Assembly (NCBI GenBank): GCA_049282095.1
Contig: JBAPTI010000031.1
Coordinates: 11,419 to 75,418, forward strand
Length of the DNA: 64,000 nt
Direction of reading: 5' to 3'
Origin: Chthoniobacterales bacterium
GTDB taxonomy: Bacteria > Verrucomicrobiota > Verrucomicrobiia > Chthoniobacterales > UBA6821
How positions within the stretch are numbered: the first letter of the stretch is position 1; each line of letters opens with the position of its first letter. The notes under the pieces were generated by a model. The model saw only the letters and a list, made by a program, of their open reading frames with translations, made no database searches and was not told the DNA's origin. The translations under genes and the position numbers were made by a program. Positions 1 to 64,000 of this stretch are shown here, one piece after another.

Positions 1-21
1 GAAACAACGTCAAAGTAACCC

Positions 22-441
22 ATGAAAACACCCCGCACTCCCCACGACACGATCCACGGTCTTGTCTACTTTCCCCGCATGGTGGAGAAGATCCGTCTCC
101 ATGCCGCGGGGGAGTTGGCCGAGGACTGCATCCCGAACCTCGGGAAGGGGTTTGATGACCGCTGCTGCAAGTTTCTGGGAGTTCCCTACGACGAACTGGC
201 TGCTCAGGTGAAGGCGGGGCTTTCCGATGAAGCGGTCTGGGATTGGTCGGTGAAGCGCGGCGCCGAGCCGACCGCAGAGCAGATCGAGATCTGGAACGGC
301 TTCATGACCAAGCGGGGATGGCGGGACGACGCAAGCGAGATCCTGATCCGCCGCAAGAAAGAGAGCGGATTCGAGACCCGCGACGAGATCCAGACCATGT
401 TCGACTACATCGATGCGGACGAGGGGAGAGAGATCAGATAG
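22..441 (+). CDS. DUF5069-like conserved hypothetical protein
   Basis: 139-aa ORF. The motif region GFDDRCCKFLGVPYDEL resembles the DUF5069 family as I recall it. The C-terminal half of the convergent ORF 568-1104 is similar. Confidence 0.55.
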   Translation: MKTPRTPHDTIHGLVYFPRMVEKIRLHAAGELAEDCIPNLGKGFDDRCCKFLGVPYDELAAQVKAGLSDEAVWDWSVKRGAEPTAEQIEIWNGFMTKRGWRDDASEILIRRKKESGFETRDEIQTMFDYIDADEGREIR

Positions 442-462
442 GACCCTGGTAGGGAAAAGGAC

Positions 463-564
463 TTACAGGGATGAAGGGGATGAAGGAGATAGAAGCAGAA
501 GAGTCCAGAAAGGTTTGGAATCTTAGAATTTCTCCATCCCTTGTATCCCCTTCATCCCTGTGAA
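463..564. repeat. Hairpin element copy A with ~29-nt inverted arms (TTACAGGGATGAAGGGGATGAAGGAGAT ... ATCCCTTGTATCCCCTTCATCCCTGTGAA)
   Basis: The inverted arms are read directly from the sequence. A second copy with near-identical arms lies at 10427-10516. This copy sits between two convergent genes. Confidence 0.8.
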
Positions 565-567
565 TTT

Positions 568-1104
568 CTACCTTTTCGAACCTCTCACAAAGGCCAGCAC
601 CTTGTCCTGATCGCCTCCCGAGGCCCATACAGCACGGAGAAAATCGGCTGGGTGGATGTCATGCTCCTTGAGGAAGCGCCTATCGCCTCCGCAACCGTAC
701 ATGATCTCGTGGCAGAGGCCGCCCTTCAGGAAGCAGGTGGCCTTCGCGATGATGCGTGGAAGCCAGGGGATTCCTTCCAGTTCCTCGGTCTTGGCGGGAA
801 GTTCCGCAGCCTCGGTCACCGTGGTGGCGGTGACACCTTTCTGATGCACGAGGAAGTAATCACGGCGCGCAGCGGCGATGAGAAGGACGGTATTCCAGTC
901 GGGCTCCCCTGCCGAAACCATGTCCTCTGCCCAGTCGTAGAGATTGATGGGACGGAGGCCCACAGAGGTGAGCCAGGCGAGCTCTTCGGCAGAGAAATAG
1001 CTTTCCAGATCACGGTTGCCGCCGCGGTAGAGGTCAACGGCCTTGTCGTAGAGTTCGCGGAGTTTTCGGGTCCAGAGATAGGAGTTCATGACTTCAAGAT
1101 ACAC
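568..1104 (-). CDS. DUF5069-like conserved hypothetical protein (paralog-like)
   Basis: 178-aa ORF. The C-terminal half (IPWLPRIIAKATCFLKGGLCHEIMYGCGGDRRFLKEHDIHPADFL) resembles the ORF at 22-441. The start could instead be the Met at 1089. Confidence 0.55.
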   Translation of the reverse strand: MYLEVMNSYLWTRKLRELYDKAVDLYRGGNRDLESYFSAEELAWLTSVGLRPINLYDWAEDMVSAGEPDWNTVLLIAAARRDYFLVHQKGVTATTVTEAAELPAKTEELEGIPWLPRIIAKATCFLKGGLCHEIMYGCGGDRRFLKEHDIHPADFLRAVWASGGDQDKVLAFVRGSKR

Positions 1105-1176
1105 CGTGACGAGGAACCGCGACAGGGTAAATCACAGGACGAGGGAATTATTGACCACGATGGCGCAAGGCTATCG

Positions 1177-1328
1177 GGTTAAAAAAGTTAGAAGGTTAAA
1201 AGGGTTCAAACCAAGTTCCGTGAAATCTGGATCAGAAAGCTAAAGCACTTTTGGGAACTGGAAGCCTTCGTGAACAAATGCCTCGGTTCACATTATAACT
1301 CTTTAACGTTCTAACTTTTTAACCTTTT
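1177..1328. repeat. Inverted repeat of GTTAAAAG/GTTAGAAG word arrays enclosing the palindrome GTGAAC-N10-GTTCAC (1270-1291)
   Basis: The left arm GGTTAAAAAAGTTAGAAGGTTAAAAG (1177-1204) is nearly the reverse complement of 1300-1328. Similar word arrays occur at 23658-23692, 29043-29168 and 58088-58123. Confidence 0.7.
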
Positions 1329-1463
1329 GCCTTTCAGTAATCCGCCTCCAATGCACCAAATCTAAGGCCGTTGCCCATTCGGGTTGGGCCACGCCGATCA
1401 CCCCAGGCGCTCCCAAATGGACAGCCACATCTTGACTGAAAGCTCTAATGATCCGCTTGAACT

Positions 1464-2225
1464 CTATTTCCGGAAGCCGGGGAGGATCTTGTTGAGTTCG
1501 TTTCCAAGTTGCTTGGCTCCCTGCTGCTGAAGTTGCTGGAGTCCCTGCTTGGCAAGGGCGTTGATACCCTCCTTCGCGGCGGCATTAATGAGGGGGGTGA
1601 TGATCTGCATGGCGACATCACGGGCCGAGATGCCCTTGCCGGCGGTGCCGATGTTCTGCAGGCGGATATCCGGGATGGAGATGGTCTGGTTGACTTTCTG
1701 GTCGAGGGCGCTGGCGGCAAGATGAACCTTCGTTCCCGAGATCACGACTTCCTTGATGACAAATTTCTTGGAGGAGGCTTCCTGGGGCGGTTTCTCCTCC
1801 TTGGTCTTGGAGGAGGATCCGGCGGACTGGATGTTCTGCATGAGTTTCCCGAGGTTGTTACCCGACGGAGTTCCGATCAGGGCGATCTCGGGGCCGCGGA
1901 TGATCACGGAATTCACGACGATCGGATCCTTGAGGAGCGTCTCCTTGTCGACGCTGACAGCGATGCTTCCGAGTTTCAGGGCGAAGGGACCCTTGTAGCC
2001 TTCGGGATTGCCGATCACGAAGCCGCTGAGTGCACCGCTTCCGGAGAATGGGGAGAGCCTTGCCGACGCCAACCGCACATCGGTCCTGGTGATGGTGGGG
2101 CCGACGGTCTCGACCGCCTTTTTGATCAGTGAGTTCAGCGAGAAGTAGAGATAGCCGATCGTCCCGATGAACAGGACAACGACCACGGCGACGAGGGAGA
2201 GGAGGATTTTTTTCATGGGATTCAA
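1464..2225 (-). CDS. Hypothetical membrane-anchored protein (N-terminal TM helix)
   Basis: 253-aa ORF with an N-terminal hydrophobic helix (ILLSLVAVVVVLFIGTIGYLYF). I do not recognise a family with confidence. Confidence 0.55.
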   Translation of the reverse strand: MNPMKKILLSLVAVVVVLFIGTIGYLYFSLNSLIKKAVETVGPTITRTDVRLASARLSPFSGSGALSGFVIGNPEGYKGPFALKLGSIAVSVDKETLLKDPIVVNSVIIRGPEIALIGTPSGNNLGKLMQNIQSAGSSSKTKEEKPPQEASSKKFVIKEVVISGTKVHLAASALDQKVNQTISIPDIRLQNIGTAGKGISARDVAMQIITPLINAAAKEGINALAKQGLQQLQQQGAKQLGNELNKILPGFRK

Positions 2226-2277
2226 TCAGCGCTTTTAGTGGATCTAGTAGAGGGGAGCTTTGGGATGGATGGCAAGG

Positions 2278-2934
2278 TCAGTCTTTCCGGAAGAACTTGT
2301 CCGGTGCATCGACGCTGGGGCAGAGGGAGCGGAGTTCGCATGCGGCGCAGTCGGGGTTGCGCGCCTTGCAGCGACGGCGGCCGTGCCAGATGAGCCAGTG
2401 GGAGAGAAGGGTCCATTGTTCCCGAGGGAAAAGTTTCATCAGGTCCTGCTCGACCTTGACCGGATCGGAGTTTGTGGTGAGTCCGAGTCGCAGGGAGAGG
2501 CGTCCGACATGGGTATCGACGACGACCCCCTCGTTGATCCCGAAGGCATTTCCGAGGACGACGTTGGCGGTCTTGCGACCCGCGCCGGGAAGGGCGGAGA
2601 GTTCGGCGATGCTGCGAGGGATCTCACCCCCATGCCGCTCCATCAGGGCGGCGCCCATGCCTCGGATCGACTTGGCCTTGTTCCGGTAGAATCCCGTGGA
2701 GCGGACGATCTCCTCGAGTTCCTCCTGAGGGATGGCCGCGTAGTCGGCGGCGGTCTTGCAGCGCTTGAAGAGTGCCTTGGTCACCATATTGACCCGGACG
2801 TCGGTGCACTGGGCGGAGAGGATCGTTGCGACGAGCAACTCGAGGGGATTTGAGAAATCGAGCTCGCAGTGGGCGTCCGGATAGATCCCGGGAAGTTCGG
2901 TGGCGAGGGTGTTGGTGCGTTCCTTGCGTGTCAT
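2278..2934 (-). CDS. nth: Endonuclease III (DNA glycosylase/AP lyase)
   Basis: HhH-GPD region LPGAGRKTANVVL and a C-terminal 4Fe-4S Cys cluster (CKARNPDCAACELRSLC), with Nth-like sequence along its full length. Confidence 0.9.
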   Translation of the reverse strand: MTRKERTNTLATELPGIYPDAHCELDFSNPLELLVATILSAQCTDVRVNMVTKALFKRCKTAADYAAIPQEELEEIVRSTGFYRNKAKSIRGMGAALMERHGGEIPRSIAELSALPGAGRKTANVVLGNAFGINEGVVVDTHVGRLSLRLGLTTNSDPVKVEQDLMKLFPREQWTLLSHWLIWHGRRRCKARNPDCAACELRSLCPSVDAPDKFFRKD

Positions 2935-2954
2935 AGGAGGAATTGGAGATTTTG

Positions 2955-4541
2955 TTACGGTTCGTTCACTCGAGCCGGCTCATACCCGCGGTGCAGGCTT
3001 AGGGTAAGGGGCTTGGTGATGCCGGGCAGGAAAACCTTCCGGGGCTTCGAGGGATTCGTGAAGAGCCACCCGAAATCACACCCGCTGCGGGGCCACTCGA
3101 CAACGAGTGCGGTCTTCCCCTTCCACGGCGCGTCATCGCTCCAGGGGAAGCGGCTTCGTCCGCGGATCGGCAGCGTCAGGAAGGGCTCCAGTTCGGGGGT
3201 GTGGTACACGAGGACTCCGTATGTCTGGTAGGTGTCGGTGCAGATGAAGTCTGCTCCCGACTCACGGAAGGAAGCGGCGGCCGCTTGGGCGACTTCCTTC
3301 GGTCCCATGATTTCGGAAAGGCGCGCCTGCAGTTCGGTGAGTGACTTGGTTGCCGAGGCGGCGATCTTTTCCGAGCCGGTCAGTCTGCCCAGGAATGCCA
3401 TGTCGGGAGTCGTGCTGCGCAGGGGGAGGGTGACTGCCCCGGGAAGCAGCAGGAGGGAGACCGCCGCCACGGCGCCGATGTCGGCGATCAGCAGAACGAT
3501 GAGTGCGGCTTTCCACCAGGCCCGACTGTAGCGCTCCCAGTCCCCCGCGACCATGATGAGGCCGCTCACGAAGGCGGCCATCGGCCAGTTGGCCTCGACA
3601 TGGGCCTTGCCCGCCGAGAACCCGAAGAAGAGCACCACCGTCCAGAAGAACGCTCCCAGGAAGCGGAAGCGACGATCACCCATCCGTGTCGCCGCCGTGC
3701 GGAAGCAGAGGAGTCCGAGGATGGGCGAGACCAGCACGACAAGGAAGACCGCGTAGTCGGCGAGGTTCTGGAGGTTGATGAGGCTGCGGTGTTCGTTGCG
3801 GAAGCCGTGGTTGAGTTGGTGGGCGAAGGAGGCCCAGTCATGGCGGCTGTTCCACCAGATCACGGGAGCAAAGAGAATCAGGGCGACGATCCCGGCCATC
3901 AGGCCGCCCAGAAAGAGACGCTTCCGGTTGCCGGGGCTTGTCAACCAGAGCAGTCCGAGTCCCGCAAAGAAGAGAACCATCGTGTATTTGCTCAGCATGC
4001 CCACACCCGCGGCCGCACCCGCCGCAAGCCACCATCCCATCGGGGCGCCTTCTTGGCTTCCACGCCATGCAAAGAGCATGGCGAATGCCCAGGCCGGAAT
4101 CAGCATGGTATCCGGCGTCATCAAAAAGGCATTCCCCGCGAAGATCGGGGCGAGTGTCAGAAAGATGCCGGCCCGGTTCCCTGCCGCCGTTCCGAAGAGT
4201 TCCTTCCCGAGCTGCCTCCCTGCCAGTGCCAGAAGGACCCCTGAGAGAATCGCTCCCAGTCGGACGGCCAGGGGATGATGCCCCAGCAGGGCGTGTCCCC
4301 CCGCGATCACCCAGGCGACAAGGGGAGGATGGTCGAAGTAACACGACTGAAGGTGGAGAGACCAGACCCAGTAGTAGCACTCGTCAAAGATGAGTCCCAG
4401 ATTGGCCCCGGCGACGAGTTTCCAGATCAGAGTGGCCAGTACGACCCCTAGGAACGTGGCATTCCTGTCGATCAGGGGAGGGGGGGCGCCTCGTTCGCCG
4501 GTGTTCCCAAAGTTCCGGTCAGTGGCAGGGTCGTTGGCCAT
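2955..4541 (-). CDS. ArnT/PMT-like (GT39/GT83-type) membrane glycosyltransferase
   Basis: 528-aa polytopic membrane ORF. The N-terminal loop FDECYYWVWS and many TM helices are typical of lipid-carrier-dependent 4-amino-arabinose/mannosyl transferases. Confidence 0.7.
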   Translation of the reverse strand: MANDPATDRNFGNTGERGAPPPLIDRNATFLGVVLATLIWKLVAGANLGLIFDECYYWVWSLHLQSCYFDHPPLVAWVIAGGHALLGHHPLAVRLGAILSGVLLALAGRQLGKELFGTAAGNRAGIFLTLAPIFAGNAFLMTPDTMLIPAWAFAMLFAWRGSQEGAPMGWWLAAGAAAGVGMLSKYTMVLFFAGLGLLWLTSPGNRKRLFLGGLMAGIVALILFAPVIWWNSRHDWASFAHQLNHGFRNEHRSLINLQNLADYAVFLVVLVSPILGLLCFRTAATRMGDRRFRFLGAFFWTVVLFFGFSAGKAHVEANWPMAAFVSGLIMVAGDWERYSRAWWKAALIVLLIADIGAVAAVSLLLLPGAVTLPLRSTTPDMAFLGRLTGSEKIAASATKSLTELQARLSEIMGPKEVAQAAAASFRESGADFICTDTYQTYGVLVYHTPELEPFLTLPIRGRSRFPWSDDAPWKGKTALVVEWPRSGCDFGWLFTNPSKPRKVFLPGITKPLTLSLHRGYEPARVNEP

Positions 4542-4703
4542 GGGGCGGCAGGATGGATTCCCCGCATCTTCAGGTCAAAGAGAAATCAGGATTGTCCTCT
4601 CTTCTTTGAGTTGACCGGTGTGACATGACCCGTCATAGTCACAAACCCCCGACACACTGTCATGGAACCCTTCCTGGCCTCTGCGTCGGGAATTCCCATT
4701 GCC

Positions 4704-5969
4704 ATGAACTCCGAATTTATCGCCATGCTCGACTACCTCGAGCGTGAAAAAGGTATCAAACGTGAGACCCTCATCGAGGCCATCTCCTCGGCCCTCGTTG
4801 CCGCCTCCAAGAAGAGCTTTTCCTGCTCCCGCGAGGTCCGCATCGACATCAATCCTAAGAGCGGCGCCATCCGCGCCTTCGCCAAGCCCCTTGTGGTCGA
4901 GACCGTTTCCAATCCCCAGGAGGAGATTTCCGTCGCCAAGGCCCGCCTCATCAACAAGGAGATCCAGCCCGGCGAAGAGATCGAGATCGAGGTGACGCCT
5001 CGCGACTTCGGCCGCATCGCTGCCCAGACCGCTCGTCAGGCGATTGCCCAGCGCATCCGTCAGATCGAGAAGGAGATGATCTACGAGGAGTTCAAGGACC
5101 GCGCCGGCGAGATCGTCAGCGGCACCGTCCGCCGATTCGACCGTAGCGATGTGGTTCTCGACCTTGGTAAGTTCGAGGGGATCATGCCCTCGCGTGAGCG
5201 CGTCAGCACCGAGGAGTACAACATCGGCGACCGCATCCGTGCCTACGTCGTCGCCGTGGAGAACGGCCCCCGCGGCCCCGAGATCATCCTCTCCCGCAGT
5301 CATCCCAACTTCATCCGCCGCCTTTTCGAGATCGAGGTCAGCGAGATCGCCGACCACACCGTCGAGCTTCGCTCCATCGCCCGCGAGGCCGGTTTCCGCA
5401 CGAAGATCGCCGTGCACAGCGCCAATGACAAGGTCGACCCTGTCGGCGCCTGCGTCGGCATGCGCGGAGCCCGCGTCAAGAATATCGTCCGCGAGCTCAA
5501 CAACGAGAAAGTGGACATCATTCGCTGGTATGAGGATCCCAAGGAGTTCGCCCGCGAGGCGCTCAAGCCGGCACGTATCCGCAGCATCGAGGTCGACGAG
5601 GCCACCCATACCCTCCGCATCGCCGTCGACAAGGAGGATCTTGCACTCGCCATCGGCAAGCGCGGCCAGAATGCCCGCCTCACCTCCCGACTCACCGGCT
5701 GGGAAATCGACATCAAGGAGGATCGCTCCGCTGCCGAAGCTTTCGAGCAGCAGCTTGGCGGTGCCGTCCATCAGCTCGCCGAGGCCCTGGGCATCTCCGA
5801 GGAGGAGGCCAAGACCCTTGCCGCCGGCGGCATGAATTCCGTCGACGTGGTCGTCACCGCCGAGGCTTCCGACATTGACGGAGTGCTTGGCTGCGGACCC
5901 GAGAAAGCCGAATCCATCCTCGCAGCCGCCAAGAGCCACCTCGAAGCGAAAGGACAGGCGGCGGCTTAG
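4704..5969 (+). CDS. nusA: Transcription termination/antitermination factor NusA
   Basis: N-terminal domain, S1 domain and two KH domains (GACVGMRGARVKNIVRELNNEKVDII; IGKRGQNARLTSRLTGWEIDI). The start is set at the Met of MNSEFIAMLDYLEREKGI rather than the ORF-track start at 4662. Confidence 0.92.
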   Translation: MNSEFIAMLDYLEREKGIKRETLIEAISSALVAASKKSFSCSREVRIDINPKSGAIRAFAKPLVVETVSNPQEEISVAKARLINKEIQPGEEIEIEVTPRDFGRIAAQTARQAIAQRIRQIEKEMIYEEFKDRAGEIVSGTVRRFDRSDVVLDLGKFEGIMPSRERVSTEEYNIGDRIRAYVVAVENGPRGPEIILSRSHPNFIRRLFEIEVSEIADHTVELRSIAREAGFRTKIAVHSANDKVDPVGACVGMRGARVKNIVRELNNEKVDIIRWYEDPKEFAREALKPARIRSIEVDEATHTLRIAVDKEDLALAIGKRGQNARLTSRLTGWEIDIKEDRSAAEAFEQQLGGAVHQLAEALGISEEEAKTLAAGGMNSVDVVVTAEASDIDGVLGCGPEKAESILAAAKSHLEAKGQAAA

Positions 5970-6017
5970 TCACGGCGCTTCCCCGTCGCGGGGAATCTGC
6001 CGTCATCCGATATTTTC

Positions 6018-7469
6018 ATGGCCTCCAAAGTCCCCACATCCAAATCAACCGCCTCCAAAGGGGCGGGTTCCAAGGCCTCTGCATCCAAGGCTCCCTCCCG
6101 CGCTTCCCGCGCTGGAACAGTCTCCGGTGCCCGCGGTTCCTCCAGGTCTTCCTCCCCGAAGGATACCAAGGATGCCTCTTCAAAGTCCAAGGCCGCATCG
6201 CCTGCTTCTGACAAAGCCGAGGCCAAGAAGCCGGTCATCAAGACGGCCGACCTTCCCACCCTTTCCCTGATCGACGAACCCGCTCCGAAGAAGCGGGTCG
6301 CCTCCACGGGCAGGGCCCTTCCACGTATCGGGGAGAGCCAGCCTCCAGCGGCGCCCGTGCCTGTCGTGGAGGAAGAGGTCGAGGCTGTCCTCACGGAAGA
6401 AGCGGTGATCGCCGAGGATGCCGAGGGTGGTGAGCCCCGCAAGGTGATCCACATCAAGCCCCCGATCCAGATAAAGGAACTGGCAACCCAGATGGGAGTT
6501 CCTCCCTTCAAGATCATCAAGGATCTGATGGGAATGCAGATTTTCGCGAACATCAACCAGTCGGTCGAGCCCGAGGTCGCCGGCAAACTCTGCGATCTTT
6601 ACGGATTCGTTTTCGAGCGCGAGAAGCGCGTCGCAGGAGGCGGTGTCCACAAGGAGGAGAAGGTTGTCATCGAGCCTCCCAAGCCCGTCGAGGAAAAGCC
6701 CGAGGCGAAGAAGCTCCGCGGCCCCATCATCACCTTCATGGGCCATGTCGACCATGGCAAGACCTCCCTGCTCGACGCCATCCGTCGCGCCAAGGTCGCT
6801 TCGGGCGAGGCAGGCGGCATCACCCAGCGAATCGGCGCCTATTCCATCGACTGGAAGGGGAACCCCATCACCTTCATCGACACCCCGGGCCATGCGGCCT
6901 TCTCCGCCATGCGGGCACGCGGTGCGAATGTCACCGACATCGTCGTCCTTGTCGTTGCAGCCGACGACGGTCTCATGCCGCAGACGCTTGAGGCTCTCAG
7001 CCATGCCCAGGCCGCCAAGGTCACGATCATGGTCGCCATCAATAAGTGCGATCTCAAGACGGCAAACCCCGACCGCGTGAAGCAACAACTCCAGGAGAAG
7101 GGACTTGTTCCCGAGGATTGGGGAGGCGACACCGTGGTCTGCGAGGTTTCCGCGGCCACCGGCAATGGAATCGACAACCTGCTCGAGATGATGTCCCTTC
7201 AGGCCGAGGTTCTGGAACTCAAGGCCAACCCCGACATTCCCGGACGCGCCAGCGTCATCGAGGCCCAGGTCGAGGCGGGACGCGGCCCCACGGCCACCGT
7301 CATCGTCAACACTGGCACCCTCCGCGTCGGCGATCCGTTCATCTGCGGCAACTACTGGGGCAAGGTCAAGCAGCTCATCAACGAGGATGGCGTCGCCTTC
7401 AAGGCCGCCGGTCCCGCCATGCCCGCCAAGGTTCTGGGGCTCAGCGGTCTTCCCAACGCCGGCGACTAA
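6018..7469 (+). CDS. infB: Translation initiation factor IF-2, N-terminal part (N-domain, G domain, domain II), ended by an in-frame TAA
   Basis: GTPase motifs [17 protein letters not shown] and NKCD. The ORF stops at TAA 7467-7469 in the middle of the conserved ...LPNAGD-x-LVV... segment. Confidence 0.9.
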
Positions 7470-7478
7470 CTCGTTGTC

Positions 7479-8216
7479 ATGGAGAACGAGCGTTCCGCTC
7501 GGCAGCTCAGCGAGGAGCGTCTCGATGCCCAGCGCAAGGAGAAGCTTTCCGCTCCCAAGAGGGCCACGCTTGAAAACCTCTTCGCCAATATCGCCGCCGA
7601 CCAAAAGAAGGTTCTCCAGATCGTCCTCAAGGCCGACATGCAGGGCTCCCTCGAGGCGATCATCGGCACCCTTAACGACATTCCGCAGGATAAGATCGAC
7701 CTCAAGATCATCCACTCCGCCGTGGGTCCGATCACCGAGAGCGACGTGCTTTTGGCCAGTGCCTCCGACGCCATCATCATCGGCTTCGGCATCAAGGTCG
7801 AGAACAGTGCCAACAACGCCACCCGCAAGGAGGGCGTCCAGATCAAGCTCTTCAGCATTATCTACGAGTTGGTCGACCAGATGCGCGACGCCATGCAGGG
7901 TATGCTTGACCCCGAGGTACGCGAAGCCGTCATCGGTCATGCCGAGGTGAAGCAGCTCTTCGATCTCACCAAGGGAATGGTCGCCGGCTCGATGGTCACC
8001 GACGGACGCATGTCGCGCTCCGCCCGCGCCCGCGTGCTGCGCCGCCGCCAGGCCGTCTACGATGGCAGCCTGACCACCCTGCGCCGATTCACCGAGGATG
8101 TGAAGGAAGTCCGTGCCGGACTCGAGTGCGGTATCCGCCTCGGCGATTACTCCGAATACGAGGTCGGCGATATCATCGAGTGCTACACCCTCGAGAAGGT
8201 CGCCCAGACCCTCTAA
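7479..8216 (+). CDS. infB: Translation initiation factor IF-2, C-terminal part (C1/C2 domains), same frame as 6018-7469
   Basis: 7479-6018 is divisible by 3, so the two parts share a frame. The sequence KADMQGSLEAI...AIIIGFGIKV...RRFTEDVKEVRAGLECGI is the canonical IF-2 C-terminus. Only a TAA and three sense codons separate it from the upstream part. Confidence 0.9.
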   Translation: MENERSARQLSEERLDAQRKEKLSAPKRATLENLFANIAADQKKVLQIVLKADMQGSLEAIIGTLNDIPQDKIDLKIIHSAVGPITESDVLLASASDAIIIGFGIKVENSANNATRKEGVQIKLFSIIYELVDQMRDAMQGMLDPEVREAVIGHAEVKQLFDLTKGMVAGSMVTDGRMSRSARARVLRRRQAVYDGSLTTLRRFTEDVKEVRAGLECGIRLGDYSEYEVGDIIECYTLEKVAQTL

Positions 8217-8258
8217 ACAGGGTTATTGTTACAAGGAGGGAGCCCTCCCGTCACAACC

Positions 8259-8657
8259 ATGAGCCTACGAACCGTCCGAGTCTGTGAACTGATCAAGCGC
8301 GAGCTTGGGACAATCGTGGGACGTGAAATGAAATTCGAGGCTCCCCTCGTTTCGGTGCGTGCCGTCGACATCACGCCTGATCTCAAGAACGCCCACGTCT
8401 TCATCAGTGCGATCGGTACCAAGTGGCAGAAAGAGCAGGCGATCGCGGCCCTCGAGGGCAATCGCCAGCACCTGCAGCACGAGCTCTCCCGGAGGGTCAT
8501 CCTGAAGTACACTCCGCATCTGTATTTCCAACTCGACGAGTCGATCGAGCGGGGGACACGCGTTCTCAATCTCCTCGACGAGATCGCCCCGACCCTGACC
8601 GATGATGACTCCGAGGAAGGGGCCGACGAGGCCGAGGGAGATCCTCGCCAGCCATGA
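8259..8657 (+). CDS. rbfA: Ribosome-binding factor A
   Basis: RbfA-like sequence (RVCELIKRELGTIV...DITPDLKNAHVFIS...YTPHLYFQLDESIERG) in the conserved position after infB. The start is set at ATG 8259. Confidence 0.88.
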   Translation: MSLRTVRVCELIKRELGTIVGREMKFEAPLVSVRAVDITPDLKNAHVFISAIGTKWQKEQAIAALEGNRQHLQHELSRRVILKYTPHLYFQLDESIERGTRVLNLLDEIAPTLTDDDSEEGADEAEGDPRQP

Positions 8658-9634
8658 CCTCCGCCACCTTCCCCGAGATCCGAGAAGCGCTCCTAGGCAA
8701 GCGGCGCATCTTGGTCGCCAGCCATCTCCGTCCCGATGCCGACGCCTACGGATCGACGATAGCCGCAGCCCTCTGGCTCCTTTCCGAGGGGCATGAAGTG
8801 ACCGCCTGGAACCAGGACGGAATGCTGGAGAAGTTCTCCTTTCTTCCCTCCTCGGAGCTGGTGCTGCCACCCCCTGCCACGCCCGTCACCTTCGACGCGG
8901 TGCTCGCGCTCGATACCTCGGTGAAGAACCGGCTGGGGACCGTGATCGACGCCGTGGCCGACACGCCACTCTGGATCTGCATCGATCACCACCGCAGCAA
9001 TGAGGGGTATGCCGACCTGAATCTCATCGACGCCACCCGTCCCGCCACTGGTCAAATCCTGGCCGAGGCTTTCATGCAATCCGGCATCACGATCACTCCG
9101 GAGATGGCCACCAATCTCTTCGCGGCGATCTCGACCGACACCGGTTCCTTCCAGTACGAGGGGACCAGCGCGGAAACCTTTGAGGTGGCAGCGGCGCTGA
9201 TCCGTCGCGGGGTGAATGTCGCTACGCTCTCCCGCTCCCTCTACGAGAGCCAGTCGAAGCGTCGCCTCGACCTCCTGAAGCACGCCCTCGTGAATGCCCG
9301 CTTCAGCTGTCAGGATCGTGTAGCGAGCTTTTCCCTCTCTCTGGCCGACGTGCAGGCCCTCGGGGTCATCCCGGAGGACAATGAGGGGATCATCGATCAC
9401 CTGCGCTCCGTCGACACCGTCAAGGCGGCCGCCTTCTTCGAGGAGCTTCCCGACGGGATGATCCGCCTCAGCCTCCGCTCCAAGGACTCCAGCTTCGATG
9501 CCTGCGCCCTCTGCGGGAAGTTCGGTGGCGGTGGTCACCTGATGGCTTCGGGGGCGCGGATCAATGGATCGCTTGCCGAGGTGGAGGCCCGTGTCCTTGC
9601 CGCGATCTGCGCCGAGATCGAGTCTGCCGACTAA
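8654..9634 (+). CDS. nrnA: DHH-family phosphoesterase (NrnA-like oligoribonuclease/pAp phosphatase)
   Basis: DHH motif (CIDHHRSN) and DHHA1 GGGH motif (FGGGGHLMASG). There is a 4-nt overlap with rbfA. Confidence 0.8.
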   Translation: MTSATFPEIREALLGKRRILVASHLRPDADAYGSTIAAALWLLSEGHEVTAWNQDGMLEKFSFLPSSELVLPPPATPVTFDAVLALDTSVKNRLGTVIDAVADTPLWICIDHHRSNEGYADLNLIDATRPATGQILAEAFMQSGITITPEMATNLFAAISTDTGSFQYEGTSAETFEVAAALIRRGVNVATLSRSLYESQSKRRLDLLKHALVNARFSCQDRVASFSLSLADVQALGVIPEDNEGIIDHLRSVDTVKAAAFFEELPDGMIRLSLRSKDSSFDACALCGKFGGGGHLMASGARINGSLAEVEARVLAAICAEIESAD

Positions 9635-9658
9635 GGACCCGCTGATTTTTCAAACACC

Positions 9659-10381
9659 ATGAGAGTAGAATCAACCATCGACGGAGTCCTTCCCATTGAC
9701 AAAGCCTCAGGAATGACATCCCACGACGTGGTAGCCATCGTGCGGCGTGTCCTGGGAACCAAGAAGGTGGGCCATTGTGGAACCCTCGATCCGATGGCTA
9801 CCGGCCTTCTGCTGCTCACCCTGGGGCGCGGAACCAAGATCCAGGATCTCCTCATGAGCGAGGACAAGGAGTATGTAGGCACCATGAAGCTTGGCGAGAT
9901 GACGGACTCCCAGGATGCCGATGGAGAGATCGCCGAGACGCGCCCCGTTCCGGAGTTCACCCACGAGCAGTTGGAGAATGCCTTTGCCAAGTATGACGGC
10001 GATTTCTACCAGACTCCCCCGATGGTCTCCGCCATCAAGAAGGATGGAGTCGCCCTCTACAAGCTCGCTCGTCAGGGGAAGACGGTCGAGCGCGAGCCGC
10101 GCTTCGTCCACATCTACGCCCATCAGATCCTCGGGGTGCGTCCCCCGGAGATCGACTTCCGCGTTGTCTGCAGCAAGGGATTCTACGTGCGCACCTACGC
10201 CTTCGATATCGGGAACGATCTCGGGTGCGGTGCCCACCTGAATGCGCTCCGCCGCACCAAGTCGGGACGGTTTGATGTCGACATGTCATTCCCTGCGGCT
10301 GATCTCAAGACCGCCCCTCGCGAGGAGATCCTCGCGAAACTCCTGACCCTCCCCCAGGTCTCCCGCTTAAGGGGAGCCTAA
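9659..10381 (+). CDS. truB: tRNA pseudouridine-55 synthase
   Basis: Catalytic motif GHCGTLDPMATGLL, with TruB-like sequence along its full length and conserved operon position. Confidence 0.92.
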   Translation: MRVESTIDGVLPIDKASGMTSHDVVAIVRRVLGTKKVGHCGTLDPMATGLLLLTLGRGTKIQDLLMSEDKEYVGTMKLGEMTDSQDADGEIAETRPVPEFTHEQLENAFAKYDGDFYQTPPMVSAIKKDGVALYKLARQGKTVEREPRFVHIYAHQILGVRPPEIDFRVVCSKGFYVRTYAFDIGNDLGCGAHLNALRRTKSGRFDVDMSFPAADLKTAPREEILAKLLTLPQVSRLRGA

Positions 10382-10426
10382 GAAATTCTCGCGCAGAGAC
10401 GCAGAGGCGCGGAGAGATGAAATTGA

Positions 10427-10516
10427 TTCACAGGGATGAAAGGGATGAAGGAGATATCATGAGCGCTATCCCCTTAACTCTTTCCCTATCCCTTGTATCC
10501 CCTTCATCCCTGTGAA
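10427..10516. repeat. Hairpin element copy B (TTCACAGGGATGAAAGGGATGAAGGAGAT ... ATCCCTTGTATCCCCTTCATCCCTGTGAA)
   Basis: The arms are near-identical to copy A (463-564) but the interior is unrelated. The right arm contains the predicted ribF GTG start (10512). Confidence 0.8.
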
Positions 10517-11441
10517 TATTCTTCACTCCATAGAGGATCTTGCCGGCCTAAAGGGCCCGATTGTCCTCGCGGCGGGGACGTTCGACGGGGTGCATCTCGG
10601 CCATCAGGCCCTGATCCGTCGAGCGATGGAGGAGGCCTCTGCCTGCGGAGGGACAGCCGTGGTGATGACCTTCGACCGCCATCCGGCATCGCTACTCCGT
10701 CCCGAGAAAGCCCCGAAACTCCTGACTCGAAACGACGGGAAGGCCGCCCTGCTCGAGGGGATGGGTGTTCCGGCGTTGCTGTTGCTTGAGTTCACCAGTG
10801 ATCTGGCCCGTGTTCCCGCGCGGAACTTCATTGCGTCACTCGTTGCGGCATGCTCTCCGCTTCATGCTTTTTGTGTCGGGCGCCAGTGGACTTTCGGGAA
10901 GGGCGGTGAGGGGAACGTAGCCCTCTTGAAAGAACTGGGTGCGGAGCGGACATTCGAGGTCATCCAGATTGATCCCGTGATGGCCGCTGATTTACCGATC
11001 AGCAGCACCCGGATCAGGAAGGCCATCGCCTCCGGTGATTTCGCCGAGTCATCCGCCTGCCTCGGTCGACCGTTTCTCCTCACGGGCAAGGTGGTGAGCG
11101 GGGCCGGTCTGGGTGTCACGATCGGCTTTCCGACGGCGAATCTCAGCGTGGAAGGGATGCAACTTCCCCCTGACGGTGTCTATGCCGTGAGAGTCCATCG
11201 TGAGGGGAGGGTTTATCCTGGAGTCGCCAATATCGGGGTCCGTCCCACGGTGGATACCACCTCTAGCAAGCGAACCGTAGAGGTTCATCTCTTCGATTGT
11301 GCAGAAGACCTCGTCGGAAAAGAACTCTCCTTGGAATTCGTGAAGTTCCTCCGGGGGGAGGAAAAGTTTTCCGGTCTGGATGCCCTCAAGGGACAGATTG
11401 CCAAGGATTGCGAGCGGGCAAGAGCGATTCTCAGTCCTTGA
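10512..11441 (+). CDS. ribF: Bifunctional riboflavin kinase / FAD synthetase
   Basis: N-terminal FAD synthetase motif AAGTFDGVHLGHQ and a C-terminal riboflavin kinase domain (GFPTANL...VEVHLFD). The GTG start is uncertain by a few codons. Confidence 0.88.
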   Translation: MNILHSIEDLAGLKGPIVLAAGTFDGVHLGHQALIRRAMEEASACGGTAVVMTFDRHPASLLRPEKAPKLLTRNDGKAALLEGMGVPALLLLEFTSDLARVPARNFIASLVAACSPLHAFCVGRQWTFGKGGEGNVALLKELGAERTFEVIQIDPVMAADLPISSTRIRKAIASGDFAESSACLGRPFLLTGKVVSGAGLGVTIGFPTANLSVEGMQLPPDGVYAVRVHREGRVYPGVANIGVRPTVDTTSSKRTVEVHLFDCAEDLVGKELSLEFVKFLRGEEKFSGLDALKGQIAKDCERARAILSP

Positions 11442-15303: not shown

Positions 15304-15328
15304 TCCCGGGGGACTTTTCCCCTTCCTA

Positions 15329-15604
15329 GGGAAGCGCTGATTAAATCCCATGAAGGCCGCTGAAGAGCATTTGCTGATTTTTGAAGGCGCGAGTGCTGGG
15401 CGATACCCGCAGCGGTCTCGCCCGAGCGAGCAACGCGGCAAAAATCAACAAATGGTTTCAGCCCTGCGGGTTGCGGAGATAACAGGCCGGGGTTTGCGTT
15501 GGCTTGGCACTTACAGCCCGCTGCGGGGATGCTCGTGCCAAGCCGCCTTGCCCGCGGCCCATTCTTCCCGCAACGGCCTCTATGCGATTTAATCAGCGTT
15601 TCCC
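15329..15604 (+). mobile_element. MITE, full copy (276 bp), 19-nt TIRs, TA flanks
   Basis: Left TIR GGGAAGCGCTGATTAAATC and right TIR GATTTAATCAGCGTTTCCC. A TA sits at 15327-28 and at 15605-06. The element is near-identical to 27240-27516 and 52515-52790. Strand denotes an arbitrary element orientation. Confidence 0.85.
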
Positions 15605-15611
15605 TAACGAC

Positions 15612-21960: not shown

Positions 21961-22064
21961 CGGCCGGGGGCTGTTTAGGCTTGGCGCTTTGCTTGCCCGG
22001 TCGCTGCTTCGCATCCGCTACGGCTTTCCGCAACGGGCTCTATGCGATTTAATCAGCGGTTCCC
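21961..22064 (+). mobile_element. MITE fragment (one end only, module-containing subtype)
   Basis: It ends in CTCTATGCGATTTAATCAGCGGTTCCC and contains the GCTTGCCCGGTCGCTGCTTCGCATCCGCTACGG module also present in the 43899-44433 and 57698-57795 copies. Confidence 0.75.
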
Positions 22065-22146
22065 TTGGATTACTTCTTGCCAAGTGCTTTTGGGATGGGC
22101 ATTCTACCCGACCACCTGAGACCAATTTCCGGCAACAATTCCTGAC

Positions 22147-26534: not shown

Positions 26535-27238
26535 CGCGCGAAGTAGCTGAGATTCTCAAGCTCGATGGCGAGGTTGACGTTGTTCACGGCAACGGTCTCG
26601 GGCAACTGGAGGAGCGTGGGCGAGAAGTTGAGGAGGGCATGGATACCGCTTCCGACGAGATGTTCGGCAACCCGCTGGGCCTCCTCCCCTGGGACGCAGA
26701 GGATCGCCATGCGGATGTCATGCTGCCTGATGACCCTGCGCATCTCCTCCATCCGCTGGACTTCAATCCGACCCCTCTGTGCTTTTTTCGGCTTCTTGTC
26801 GAAGGCCGCGATGATCTCGAACCCCTCCTTGGCAAATCCCCTGTAGCTCAGGAGCGCCTGTCCGAGGTTACCGGCACCGACCAAAATGACAGGTTGGAGG
26901 CTCGCGCGCCCCAGAATTTCCTCAAGGCGGTTACGGAGCAGGATGACTTCGTAGCCGGTGCCGCGTTTCCCAAGCGGGCCGCAGCAGGCGAGATCCTTGC
27001 GAAGTTGGGCCGGTTGCACGCCGGCCACGCCGGCGAGAGCCGTTGAGGAGACGATGCTTGTGCGGTTGGCCACCATGAGGCCCAGGCATCGCAGATAGAG
27101 GGAGAGCCGGTAGACGGTCTTCTTGGGAATCTCCCCGGCGGAATGGGCCTGTCGCTCATGATGCCTGACCCGCGGTACGTGTTCCTGCCGGGGGGATTTC
27201 CCGGTCACCTTGAGTGAACGATGGCCTTCGCGGCTCAT
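26531..27238 (-). CDS. rex: Redox-sensing transcriptional repressor Rex
   Basis: wHTH (IPKKTVYRLSLYLRCL) plus Rossmann VILVGAGNLGQALL. The start ATG 27236-38 is supported by the reconstructed ATGA overlap with miaB. The ORF-track N-terminal extension lies in the MITE. Confidence 0.85.
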   Translation of the reverse strand: MSREGHRSLKVTGKSPRQEHVPRVRHHERQAHSAGEIPKKTVYRLSLYLRCLGLMVANRTSIVSSTALAGVAGVQPAQLRKDLACCGPLGKRGTGYEVILLRNRLEEILGRASLQPVILVGAGNLGQALLSYRGFAKEGFEIIAAFDKKPKKAQRGRIEVQRMEEMRRVIRQHDIRMAILCVPGEEAQRVAEHLVGSGIHALLNFSPTLLQLPETVAVNNVNLAIELENLSYFAR

Positions 27239-27239
27239 A

Positions 27240-27516
27240 GGGAAGCACTGATTAAATCGCATAGAGGCCGTTGCGGGAAGAATGGGCCGTGGGCAAGGCG
27301 GCTTGGCGCGAGCATCCCCGCAGTGGGCTGTAAGCGCCAAGGCAACAAAGCCCCCCGGCCGGTTATCTCCGCAACCCGGAGGGCTGAAGCCATTTGTCGA
27401 TTTTTGTGGCGTTGCTCGCTCGGGCGAGACCGCTGCGGGTATCGCCCAGCACTCGCGCCTTCAAAAATCAGCAAATGCTCTTCAGCGGCCTTCATGGGAT
27501 TTCATCAGCGCTTCCC
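27240..27516 (-). mobile_element. MITE, full copy (277 bp), TA flanks, inserted at the miaB/rex junction
   Basis: TIRs GGGAAGCACTGATTAAATC and GATTTCATCAGCGCTTCCC. A TA sits at 27238-39 and at 27517-18. The interior is collinear with 15329-15604 in reverse orientation. Confidence 0.88.
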
Positions 27517-28944
27517 TAAGGTCTCCGATCCCTCTCCCAGTATGGCGGGATCACCATAGAGGGTGGAGGCGCTGGCGGAGGTGATCTCGACATCGAAGAT
27601 CTGACCATGGAAGCGGCTCCCTCCCTCCAAGATCACGATCTTGTTGGTGCGGGTGCGACCGGCCAGTCGGGAGGGGTCGTTCCTGCTCGGGCCCTCGCAG
27701 AGGATTTGCTGCCTGGTGCCGACGCATGCCTCGAGGTGGCGTGAGGCGGAGGCGTTCACCACCGCGAGGAGGTCCTGATTGCGGAACTCCTTCACCTCTT
27801 CGGAAAGCTGTCCGTCCATCACGGCGGCGGGTGTGTCGCCGCGCTTGGAGTAGCGGAAGACAAAGGCACCGTCGAAGCCGATCTCCTCGGCAAGGTCGCG
27901 GGTGGCCCTGTAATCCTCATCCGTTTCGCCCGGGAAGCCGACGATGATGTCGGTGCTGACTGCGATGCCGGGGCGGGCAGCCCGGAGATCCGCCACCAGC
28001 TTTCGGAAAGAGGCTGCCGTGTAGGGACGGTGCATGGCCTTGAGGATCCGGTCGCTGCCAGACTGGAGGGGAAGGTGGACATGCTCCATGAGTTTCGGAA
28101 GCCGCGCGAAGCACTCCACGAGATCCTTGCGGAATCCCATCGGATGGGGGGAGGTGAAGCGGATGCGTTCGATTCCCTCGACGGCGTTGAGCGCCTCCAG
28201 GAGTTGCACGAAGGGGCTCTTGCCATCCACCTTGGGGAATTCGTGGCGTCCGTAGAGATTGACGATCTGGCCGAGCAGCGTCACCTCCTTGATCCCTCTG
28301 CCGGCGAGGGTGCGGGCTTCCTCGACGATTTCTGCGATCGGTCGGCCGCGCTCGGGTCCGCGCGTCGTCGGGACAATGCAGAAGGTGCAGTGCATGTTGC
28401 ATCCCTGCATGATTGAGATGAACGCGGTGGCGGCCTTTTTCTCGGTGGGGAGATGCTCGCGGATGGTGTTCTGCGATCCCTCCTCGGCGGCGATGTCGAC
28501 GATCGGGGCCATTGGGGCCATTGGGGCGATCTGATTGATGCTTCCCCCCAGTTCGGTTGCATCCTCGGCGGCAAAGGCCTCTTCACGACGGCGGAGCGCC
28601 TCTTCCACATGGTCGGCGACACGGTGAAACTTCTGGGTCCCCACCACGAGATCGACATGGGGTGAGCGGTTCCCCAGATCATCCCCCAGGCGCTGCGCCA
28701 TGCATCCCATGTAGCCCAGGACGAGCTTCGGCTTCTCCCGGCGGAGCTTGCGGAGCATGCCCATCTTCCCGATCGCTTTCTGCTCGGCCATGTCGCGGAC
28801 GCTGCACGTGTTGAGCAGGATCACGTCGGCATCCCGCTCGTTGTCAACGAGACGGTGACCGCGGTCCTGAAGATCGCGCGCCACCTGTTCGGAGTCGCGC
28901 TCGTTCATCTGGCAACCGTAGGTCTTGATGAAGACGCTGGGCAT
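27505..28944 (-). CDS. miaB: tRNA-i6A37 methylthiotransferase MiaB
   Basis: MTTase N-domain (FIKTYGCQMNERDSE), radical-SAM GCNMHCTFCIVP and a TRAM domain. The last 3 codons plus the stop (GKR*) are encoded by the MITE TIR. The start is set at ATG 28944. Confidence 0.9.
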   Translation of the reverse strand: MPSVFIKTYGCQMNERDSEQVARDLQDRGHRLVDNERDADVILLNTCSVRDMAEQKAIGKMGMLRKLRREKPKLVLGYMGCMAQRLGDDLGNRSPHVDLVVGTQKFHRVADHVEEALRRREEAFAAEDATELGGSINQIAPMAPMAPIVDIAAEEGSQNTIREHLPTEKKAATAFISIMQGCNMHCTFCIVPTTRGPERGRPIAEIVEEARTLAGRGIKEVTLLGQIVNLYGRHEFPKVDGKSPFVQLLEALNAVEGIERIRFTSPHPMGFRKDLVECFARLPKLMEHVHLPLQSGSDRILKAMHRPYTAASFRKLVADLRAARPGIAVSTDIIVGFPGETDEDYRATRDLAEEIGFDGAFVFRYSKRGDTPAAVMDGQLSEEVKEFRNQDLLAVVNASASRHLEACVGTRQQILCEGPSRNDPSRLAGRTRTNKIVILEGGSRFHGQIFDVEITSASASTLYGDPAILGEGSETLGKR

Positions 28945-43129: not shown

Positions 43130-43139
43130 GGGAAGGCGA

Positions 43140-43333
43140 AAGGCGAACCAAGTCGCTGGGAAGCGGCGCGGAAGACTGTGAGTGCAGCGAACAGCCCTGA
43201 AAGGCGGCACTGCTTGCCGGGAGGCAAGTGCCGTCAAAGGCGAACCAAGTCGCTGGGAAGCGGCGCGGAAGACTGTGAGAGCAGCGAACAGCCCTGAAAG
43301 GGCGCCACGGCTAGCCGGGAGGCAACTGGCGTG
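43140..43333. repeat. Tandem direct repeat, 2 x 97 bp
   Basis: The units start at 43140 and 43237. The first ~66 nt are identical except for one position, and the last ~30 nt diverge. Each unit ends in a GGGA-looped hairpin. Confidence 0.85.
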
Positions 43334-43898: not shown

Positions 43899-44433
43899 AA
43901 GCGCTGATTAAATCGCATAGAGGCCGTTGCGGGAAGCCGTAGCGGATGCGAAGCAACGACCGGGCAAGCCATGGGCCGCGGGCAAGGCGGCTTCGCGGGC
44001 GCATCCCCGCAGTGGGCTGCCGTAACGGATGCGAAGCAACGGCCGGGCAAGCAAAGCGCCAAGCCAACACAGTTGGCCCCCGTGCCACGCCACGAAGCCA
44101 AAGGCTTTGTGGCCCCCGGCTGGTTATCTCCGCAACCCGGAGGGCTGAAGCCAGTTGTCGATTTTTGCCTCGCCGTCTCCCGACGGTCTCGTCCTCCGGA
44201 CTGCTTCGCAGGCTACGACGCGGCTCCCGCCGCTCGTCGTTGCGGCGATGCTCGCTCGGGCGAGACCGCTGGGGGTATTGACTCGCTCGCTCCCGCTCGG
44301 CTCGCCCTGACGGGTTTGCCTCCGGCAAATCTACCCAAGCCGCACCCGCAGCTACGTGTTGCCCAGCACTCGCGCCTTCAAAAATCAGCAAATGCTCTTC
44401 AGCGGCCTTCATGGGATTTAATCAGCGTTTCCC
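43899..44433 (-). mobile_element. MITE, mosaic long copy (~535 bp) with at least 5 internal insert modules
   Basis: It shares both ends and the backbone with the 276-bp copies. It carries two direct copies of the 33-nt module CCGTARCGGATGCGAAGCAACGRCCGGGCAAGC plus other inserts. The left TIR lacks the terminal GGG. Confidence 0.8.
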
Positions 44434-44474
44434 TTGGCAGCGCGATGCCCATGATGCATATTCTTTTTCTCCGC

Positions 44475-52515: not shown

Positions 52516-52790
52516 GGAAGCGCTGATTAAATCGCATAGAGGCCGTTGCGGGAAGAACTGGCCGCGGGCAAGGCGGCTTGGCACGAGCATCCCCGCAGCG
52601 GGCTGTAAGTGCCAAGCCAACGCAGCCCCCGGCCTGTTATCTCCGCAACCCGCAGGGCTGACGTCATTTGTCGATTTTTGCGGCGTTGCTTGCTAGGGCG
52701 AGACCACTGCGGGTATCGCCCAGCGCTCGCGCCTTCAAAAATCAGCAAATGCTCTTCAGCGGCCTTCATGGGATTTAATCAGCGTTTCCT
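52515..52790 (-). mobile_element. MITE, full copy (276 bp), TA flanks
   Basis: TIRs AGGAAGCGCTGATTAAATC and GATTTAATCAGCGTTTCCT. A TA sits at 52513-14 and at 52791-92. The first element base completes the TAA stop of the Wzc-like gene. Confidence 0.88.
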
Positions 52791-52847
52791 TAAGGAACCG
52801 CAGTTCCCTGCTCTCACTTTCTCCTTGGTTCTTTCTTCCCCTTCAGG

Positions 52848-57682: not shown

Positions 57683-57697
57683 AAGCCTGCCTTCCTT

Positions 57698-57795
57698 GGG
57701 AGCCGCTGATTAAATCGCATGGAAGCCGTTGCGGGAAGCTGTAACGGATGCGAAGCAACGGCCGGGCAAGCCATGGACCGCATCCCTGCGGCTTG
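57698..57795 (-). mobile_element. MITE fragment (one end, module-containing subtype)
   Basis: GGGAGCCGCTGATTAAATCGCATGGAAGCCGTTGCGGGAAG followed by the CTGTAACGGATGCGAAGCAACGGCCGGGCAAGC module. The other end is absent. Confidence 0.75.
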
Positions 57796-57926: not shown

Positions 57927-58043
57927 ATGTTCAACCGGTTTGTGGGTCAGAGTTTTGAAAAAGACTTTGCCAAGCCCTTTGTCCACATCCTCTTTGGCGC
58001 TCGGCAGACCGGTAAGTCTTCACTGGTCCGAAGTCTGATGTGA
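57927..58043 (+). pseudogene. Truncated 5' fragment of an AAA-ATPase gene (AAA_14/DUF4143-type)
   Basis: It encodes MFNRFVGQSFEKDFAKPFVHILFGARQTGKSSLVRSLM then a stop. There is a Walker A GxxxxGKS but only 38 codons, whereas full-length family members are about 400 aa. Confidence 0.6.
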
Positions 58044-58301
58044 TGAACCACGACCAGATCCGCAGACTCTGATCCGGCCAATTTTTCGCTTTGTAACGCT
58101 TCAACGTTCTAACCTTTTCAACCTCCTCGAGACCCCCTCCTTCCCTAACAGTCCAACAGCCTTTTGTCTGGCGATCTCCCCGGATCAGCCATCCTCGATC
58201 TGCAGATCTTCGGACTACTCGCCTAAGCCTCGTATGACATCGACGAAGGAGAGGCAAGCAAAGCCACTTACCCAAGCGCCTTTTGTCTAAAAGCCTCATC
58301 C

Positions 58302-60044: not shown

Positions 60045-60691
60045 TAAATCTTCTTTCCTACTTGAAATCAATTGCAGGAGGGTGGATCGCATTCCTCCGA
60101 AGGAAACAATTACAAGAGGCATGTAGATACCGTTACTGGCGACAAAAAGTCACAATTAATCCGAGGGCTCGGATGAATGGGGAACGTGGTATTGAGTTGG
60201 GGGAGGGCACAGTCATATATGAAAGCGCTCACTTATGTGCCGGATACCTCTTGCCTGATGAGTCAATTCAGAGCGAACCCATTGGTTCAATTGTGATCGG
60301 AAGAAACTGTACTGTGATGCCTGGTGCAATTCTTGCTACCTATGGCGGTAGGATTGAAATTGGAAGCAATGTAAGCATCAATCCAAATGTTATTATCTAT
60401 GGAAATGGAGGGGTTTGGATTGGAGATAAAACTCGCATTGCAGCCCAAGTCGTAATTGTCGCTCAGAACCACATCTTTGCCGACTCCTCGAGGCCAATAA
60501 TGGAACAGGGGTTAAGTACTAAAGGAATCGTTATTGGAAATGATGTTTGGATAGGTGCTGGAGCTAAAATTCTTGATGGGATTACCATTGGAGATGGTGC
60601 GGTGATCGGCGCGGGTGCCGTTGTTAGATCTGATATATCTCCCTACAGCATTGCGGTTGGAGTTCCGGCTAGAGAGGTATCTAGAAGATAG
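60041..60691 (+). CDS. Hexapeptide-repeat (LbH) acetyltransferase
   Basis: Repeated [LIV]-G-x4 hexapeptides (IGSNVSINPNVIIYG...IGNDVWIGAGAKILDGITIGDGAVIGAGAVV). It has a 4-nt overlap with the ABC gene. Confidence 0.85.
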   Translation: MINLLSYLKSIAGGWIAFLRRKQLQEACRYRYWRQKVTINPRARMNGERGIELGEGTVIYESAHLCAGYLLPDESIQSEPIGSIVIGRNCTVMPGAILATYGGRIEIGSNVSINPNVIIYGNGGVWIGDKTRIAAQVVIVAQNHIFADSSRPIMEQGLSTKGIVIGNDVWIGAGAKILDGITIGDGAVIGAGAVVRSDISPYSIAVGVPAREVSRR

Positions 60692-60724
60692 TCTTCCGGA
60701 AAATTGTTCTTAAGAGGTAATCAG

Positions 60725-63929: not shown

Positions 63930-64000
63930 AAGTTCTGATCGTCGAGGATGCCCTCAACAGTCTGCAGGGACATTGGTTTCAGTATATCTCCGATCTTGTC
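63926..64000 (+). CDS. 5' end of a further ORF (MKVLIVEDALNSLQGHWFQYISDLV...), truncated by the window edge
   Basis: It has an ATGA overlap with the preceding GT gene. Only 25 codons are visible, so function is unknown. Confidence 0.4.
   Translation, partial: MKVLIVEDALNSLQGHWFQYISDLV

Follow-up and report, generated by a model that had tools for sequence, protein, structure and literature searches.

We examined a 64,000-nt stretch of a Chthoniobacterales MAG (hereafter the window), in which infB, the gene for translation initiation factor IF-2, is interrupted by an in-frame TAA. Comparison with the genes of relatives indicates that the T at position 7467, which creates this stop, most likely reflects an error at one base of the consensus or a minor variant that is not representative, and that the organism would then have an ordinary full-length IF-2 with a glutamate at residue 484. 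The evidence consists of the confinement of the stop to one assembly, the codon found at this site in close and distant relatives, the condition of the remainder of the gene and of the window, and the occurrence of comparable breaks in other assemblies.

The region 6018–8216 on the + strand forms a single frame of 732 codons encoding IF-2, interrupted at codon 484. The bases from 7461 onward read GGC GAC TAA CTC GTT GTC ATG GAG, with the TAA at 7467–7469 and the ATG at 7479. The two resulting open reading frames, 6018–7469 (483 aa) and 7479–8216 (245 aa), share one frame, and three codons (9 nt) lie between the stop and the ATG. The NCBIfam IF-2 model TIGR00487 (587 positions) is covered contiguously by the two products, from 4 to 336 by the N-terminal piece and from 342 to 585 by the C-terminal piece, and the 483-aa piece on its own reaches 427.9 bits, above the cut-off of 424.4. 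The N-terminal piece comprises the N-terminal region, IF2_N (PF04760), the GTPase domain (PF00009, E=3e-37, residues 237–393), with G motifs that can be read in the translated sequence, and the greater part of the domain II barrel (PF22042), with residues 410–483 matching model positions 3–79 of 84. The C-terminal piece comprises the linker helix, C1 (PF11987, E=6.9e-38), and C2, the second barrel (PF03144). With Glu restored at codon 484, the protein aligned without gaps across the stop to the solved IF-2 structures from P. aeruginosa, E. coli, and Thermus, its core being covered end to end, and the residue in these structures equivalent to the stop codon is the Glu of 'AGDE'. The results bear out what the preliminary description had reported of the site, namely an in-frame TAA followed three codons later by an ATG, two IF-2 parts in the same frame, and a conserved segment at the end of domain II; its statement that a single sense codon had been replaced, with no frameshift or deletion, agrees with the gap-free alignment to relatives and with the GAA ancestral to the site.

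The gene lies in a canonical operon, nusA-infB-rbfA-nrnA-truB-ribF, the order of which is kept in relatives. Upstream of infB is nusA (4662–5969; TIGR01953, E=1.7e-122), the product of which is identical in the contigs of relatives; downstream are rbfA (8259–8657; TIGR00082), an nrnA-like gene for a DHH phosphoesterase (8654–9634), truB (9659–10381; TIGR00431, E=3.9e-70), and ribF (10512–11441; NF004160, E=4.3e-91), all on the + strand. Compared with bacterial IF-2 as represented by TIGR00487, the window gene has the same domain order (IF2_N, GTPase, domain II barrel, C1, C2), with the GTPase domain, domain II, and C1/C2 collinear with the profile, the same operon context, and the same 'GLxGxPxAGDE..VV..E..AR' segment. 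It differs only in the TAA at codon 484, which deprives it of the uninterrupted frame otherwise characteristic of the family. The GenBank MAG (Chthoniobacterales, Verrucomicrobiota; locus tags WAL87_, 76,391-nt contig) lists two proteins for infB, MFZ0434910.1 (483 aa, 'translation initiation factor IF-2') and MFZ0434911.1 (245 aa, 'hypothetical protein'), which ought to be merged into a single infB entry containing an internal stop. Sequences identical to the 483-aa and 245-aa products are recorded from NCBI only, and the flanking NrnA and GT39 proteins from NCBI and Logan; neither infB product had an exact match in the contig index, and the cluster table listed only the MAG's own NCBI entries for them.

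To read the codon at this site in relatives, we aligned 80 species-representative GTDB genomes of the order Chthoniobacterales at the position of the stop. The residue is Glu in 79 genomes and Asp in one (codons GAA 57, GAG 22, GAC 1), and the infB core is without stop or frameshift in all 80. The best tblastn matches were to MAGs of Chthoniobacterales and Terrimicrobiaceae, at 69–76% identity, in keeping with the order to which the record assigns the MAG. Closer relatives were gathered by exact-protein look-ups of the neighboring NusA, L19, and RbfA and by a pattern scan of the site in JGI metagenomes with the first base of the codon left free. Among the contigs fetched, 12 span the site; they come from ENA, JGI, NCBI, and Logan assemblies, represent about six distinct sequences, and have 95.3–97.8% nucleotide identity to the window, and GAA was present in 12 of 12. 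The JGI scan returned GAA only, and E484 is shared by the other nine proteins clustered with the window IF-2 at 90% identity. Two of the contigs, L081 and L083, carry an intact 732-aa infB that is collinear with the window gene and without gaps, and the frame is unbroken in most close-relative contigs covering the gene, the exceptions being L095, which has a private stop, and L082, which is broken in the N-terminal region. The comparison of orthologues proposed in the preliminary description thus returned Glu or Asp at the site and never a stop, either in the 80 GTDB relatives or in the close-relative contigs. The TAA allele was found in no other assembly; its restriction to a single assembly, with near-identical independent sequences lacking it, is as expected of an artefact. 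On this comparison GAA, present as Glu484 in all close relatives, is the ancestral codon, TAA is one G>T transversion away, and the private change at 7467 is younger than about 2–4% nucleotide divergence.

The remainder of the gene shows continued constraint. Over codons 485–732, the synonymous and non-synonymous differences number 26/0, 22/0, and 16/1 relative to L081, L083, and L097, and all nine window-private codon changes downstream of the stop are synonymous; in infB we found no sign of pseudogene decay, with no non-synonymous private changes downstream, no indels, and no further stops. Across 2955–11431, 80 substitutions are private to the window, of which 65 are synonymous, 13 non-synonymous, and 2 intergenic. 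Most are transitions, and as a whole they look like real divergence; the sole nonsense change among them is the infB stop. Costello et al. reportedly described G>T/C>A changes in 2013 as a classical oxidative-damage artefact of Illumina libraries. A library-wide signature of G>T damage is absent from the 80 private substitutions, which include 8 G>T and 6 C>A; because there is no such excess, the interpretation as an artefact cannot lean on a library-wide signature. One other window-private G>T lies in infB, at 7166, where AAG became AAT (K383N); the residue is Lys in all close relatives, the Asn is corroborated by no independent assembly, and the position is variable among more distant IF-2s. 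Stop-creating changes make up 2.9% of all possible single substitutions in infB and 6.5% of the possible G>T/C>A substitutions, and infB is the longest gene of the locus. The infB stop is a single event and not a statistical pattern, and the question it raises is one of authenticity rather than chance.

The window is otherwise clean. Of the 21 genes that it has in common with the relatives of ~95% identity, 20 are collinear, gap-free, and stop-free, infB alone carrying a stop, and all indels relative to these contigs are intergenic. Between 23 and 54 kb, the 20 ORFs checked, including carB, ftsK, two radical-SAM methylthiotransferase genes, mlaEFD, wzy/wza/wzc-like genes, and a uxs-like gene, match their Pfam domains over essentially the whole length, with no split apparent in any of them. 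Out of about 45 genes, infB alone is interrupted, so the assembly as a whole is not noisy.

The preliminary description had left four explanations unranked, namely a sequencing or consensus error, a real nonsense codon tolerated through readthrough, an IF-2 made as two polypeptides, and a pseudogene compensated by a second infB copy. The evidence favors the first of these. If the base were real, termination-reinitiation would be the least unlikely mechanism, with IF-2 produced in a living freshwater Chthoniobacterales strain as two polypeptides (residues 1–483 and 488–732); we consider this very unlikely, and give a similarly low probability to the step on which it depends, in which ribosomes would terminate at TAA 7467, restart 9 nt on at ATG 7479, and deliver fragments that cooperate non-covalently. 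Bacterial 70S ribosomes are known to reinitiate over short distances, the G and C fragments of Bacillus stearothermophilus IF2 retain partial activities in vitro when isolated, and the in-frame ATG 9 nt past the stop and the undecayed downstream part are compatible with a split. A missing Shine-Dalgarno sequence would also be no obstacle, as most genes of the window lack one (median predicted anti-SD pairing −1.7 kcal/mol) and have C/T-rich leaders instead, which suggests largely SD-independent initiation in the lineage and makes a check for such a sequence before ATG 7479 uninformative. However, the stop occurs in no relative, including the contigs that are 95–98% identical, and ATG 7479 (Met488 in 'LVVMENER') already exists in all the close relatives whose infB is intact. 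Over the 60 nt surrounding the stop, the sequence is that of the relatives, save for the G>T and one or two synonymous sites in a few of them, with the nearest downstream synonymous differences ~30 nt from the stop; compared with close relatives, no base near the stop has changed in a way that favors reinitiation. The break falls at position 79 of the 84 in PF22042, five positions before the model end, and thus inside the domain II barrel and not in an interdomain linker; a split would lose residues 484–487 and leave the rest of domain II, including Met488, to the C-terminal piece. In the other broken infB genes the breaks lie elsewhere, and each is confined to its own assembly; a literature search on IF-2 returned no report of a split or two-piece form. 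Natural split genes are marked by a split shared among relatives, a break at a domain boundary, and a start signal of their own, a combination that infB lacks here. E. coli IF2 alpha, beta, and gamma illustrate that several polypeptides can arise from an infB frame via internal starts, but these isoforms have the whole C-terminal core in common, differ at the N-terminus, and involve no stop codon, whereas a putative restart at 7479 would part the GTPase from the fMet-tRNA-binding domains. A natural split inside domain II of a universally conserved, essential translational GTPase would, if true, be a surprising exception.

Readthrough of a real TAA, by a suppressor tRNA encoded elsewhere or by leaky termination at TAA-C, appears less likely still. 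The base following the TAA is C, which as a fourth base is the weakest termination context in E. coli, and the downstream sequence is fully conserved, both of which would suit readthrough. On the other hand, UAA is recognized by both release factors, with basal readthrough of about 1e-4 to 1e-3, which would not suffice for an essential factor needed in abundance, and a strong ochre suppressor would be costly, since TAA ends 13 other genes in the window; the sole tRNA in the window is Leu-CAA, and again no relative carries the stop. A real and very recent stop, by which this infB copy would be a fresh pseudogene with another infB elsewhere making up for it, is to our mind yet more improbable. 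Such a recent inactivation would leave no decay signal, and the search for a second copy covered 64 kb of the genome. Against this, the window contains no second IF-2 ORF, the interrupted copy occupies the canonical nusA-infB-rbfA-truB operon, one infB locus with no duplicate was returned for each of the 80 relatives, and none of the nine private codon changes downstream is non-synonymous. That these changes are all synonymous rules out an old pseudogene, so the fourth explanation in its older form is contradicted. Reassignment of TAA to a sense codon, or a programmed recoding site, is barely credible, with nothing beyond the in-frame stop itself to speak for it. In a GC3-guided gene map of the window (48 candidate genes), the use of the three stops is balanced (TGA 18, TAG 16, TAA 14). 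None of the other genes has an internal TAA. The 13 other genes terminated by TAA include truB, gltX, rplS, and the uxs-like and Wzc-like genes, the same five that the preliminary description had named when it judged a change of code unlikely; because TAA ends all 13, the code is taken as standard, and reassignment is effectively refuted by this pattern of stop-codon usage. As for recoding, relatives use GAA/GAG at the site and the stop is not conserved, and an Rfam scan of the window returned tRNA only, with no element near the infB stop. The programmed stops of prfB (+1 frameshift at UGA) and of selenocysteine insertion (UGA) are likewise in-frame stops in genes that must be expressed; such sites show conservation among relatives, have UGA as the stop, and require cis elements, whereas the window stop is UAA, occurs in one assembly only, and has no associated element. 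No feature supports the split, readthrough, pseudogene, or reassignment explanations, and the privacy of the stop counts against each.

Comparable defects in other assemblies are consistent with the preferred explanation, an erroneous or unrepresentative base. In L095 (ENA ERZ27272034, k141_83224, MEGAHIT-style), a private G>T at contig position 5014 changes GAG (Glu) to TAG at infB codon 426 of a 739-aa form. Apart from the divergent last 50 nt of the contig, this stop alone separates L095 from a genotype found at 100% identity in at least six other samples and assemblies. In L104 (ENA ERZ19040081 scaffold_18450, about 77% nucleotide identity), a ~29-nt deletion with a frameshift at 850–905 in the domain II region leads to infB being called as two overlapping pieces, and is probably a scaffold-level assembly defect. 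Frameshifted IF-2 fragments were also found on long MAG contigs, all of which keep the Glu at the site, and the flanking genes of the 80 GTDB MAGs contained about 5 candidate frameshifts in about 300 gene instances. We considered whether the stops of L095 and of the window reflect an infB-specific phenomenon and rejected this, because the two affect different codons, each private to one assembly, the L095 stop is limited to one contig of a clone that recurs unchanged in at least six other samples, the other breaks are frameshifts, and flanking genes in MAGs show a similar background of defects. The L095 parallel is more in keeping with a background of assembly or sequencing defects than with a mechanism specific to infB. 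MAGs are documented to contain unsupported local errors in the consensus (10.1101/808410). Like such gene-breaking defects, the window stop is confined to a single assembly and does not occur in near-identical sequences; unlike most of those seen here, which are indels or frameshifts, it is a clean substitution in an otherwise clean 64 kb.

The same strain is represented in a second data set, the Logan assembly of SRR28003389. Contig L093 of this run equals window 1–5030 at 100.000% identity, and contig L092 equals window 8057–9684 at 100% before continuing with another strain's alleles, and from this identity we take the strain to be present in independently assembled data. The exact NrnA-like protein of the window is found in this run, and the private G>T responsible for NrnA R14L is reproduced there. 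The SRR28003389 assembly is broken between window 5030 and 8057, exactly across infB, and exact look-ups, a contig walk, and site-centered protein searches recovered no contig of the same strain spanning 7467. The predicted cut NusA product (5001–5966) of the next SRR28003389 contig, which would have led the walk into infB, is not on record, nor is a repaired 732-aa IF-2 with E, Q, K, or Y at residue 484. In a site-centered protein search for the private N383, which listed proteins up to about 1.75 times the query length, the matches listed were at most 76% identical except for one at 91%, with no same-strain fragment among them; a second such search returned nothing above 70% identity and no same-strain fragment. 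For a query of the site in Logan unitigs, the two 31-mers are GCCGGCGACTAACTCGTTGTCATGGAGAACG and GCCGGCGACGAACTCGTTGTCATGGAGAACG.

In the explanation that we prefer, one wrong G>T in the MAG consensus, arising from a sequencing or assembly error, would have turned GAA into TAA; alternatively, a non-representative minor variant may have been picked up where strain-specific coverage was thin. De Bruijn assemblers require k-mers to exist in the reads, so the T at 7467 should have been carried by some read or reads, which counts against a pure error. In either case the organism's own infB would consist of 732 uninterrupted codons with Glu484, and the 483-aa 'IF-2' and 245-aa 'hypothetical protein' would be annotation consequences of one base. 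Relative to close relatives, the sequence around and beyond this private stop bears no trace of relaxed selection or local adaptation, and the GAA that it replaced is otherwise set in a clean gene and window; we infer that the base is wrong rather than a real recent mutation, and with good confidence do not regard the stop as a real biological feature. Its biological weight is probably slight, because the organism most likely has a normal IF-2. The case bears instead on data hygiene, one base in a public MAG having produced two database proteins by which estimates of completeness, pangenome counts, and the search for split or recoded genes can be misled. It also illustrates a cheap triage that needs no reads, in which near-identical contigs from independent assemblies are collected through exact-protein look-ups of neighbor genes, the codon is read in them, and synonymous and non-synonymous private changes downstream are compared.

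Several further features of the window were observed. Synteny with the ~95% identical relatives (e.g., L086) stops at ~23580, and none of the fetched contigs offers a near-identical match to the 40 kb beyond that point. Overlapping + strand ORFs at 39–42 kb were considered as a possible frameshifted gene and rejected, being three separate complete genes for a radical-SAM methylthiotransferase (MiaB/RimO-type), MlaE, and an ABC ATPase. The GC content drops from ~0.60 to 0.41–0.50 over 58000–64000, a region adjoining the wzy/wza/wzc/uxs polysaccharide genes (45–54 kb) that probably represents a glycan-synthesis island gained by horizontal transfer. Dispersed through the intergenic regions is a repeat about 280 nt long, whose copies share 91–96% identity and lie at 15327–15608 (−), 27238–27521 (+), and 52511–52795 (+), with partial copies at 21971–22069, 43899–44072, 44356–44440, and 57693–57781; it has no Rfam match, looks like a MITE- or REP-like element, and is also present at the contig ends of relatives (L081 1–214, L084 1–187), where assemblies break. 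In addition, the intergenic region at 43139–43301, after the mlaD-like gene, contains two tandem-like copies of a 66-nt unit that are 98% identical and spaced by 97 nt.
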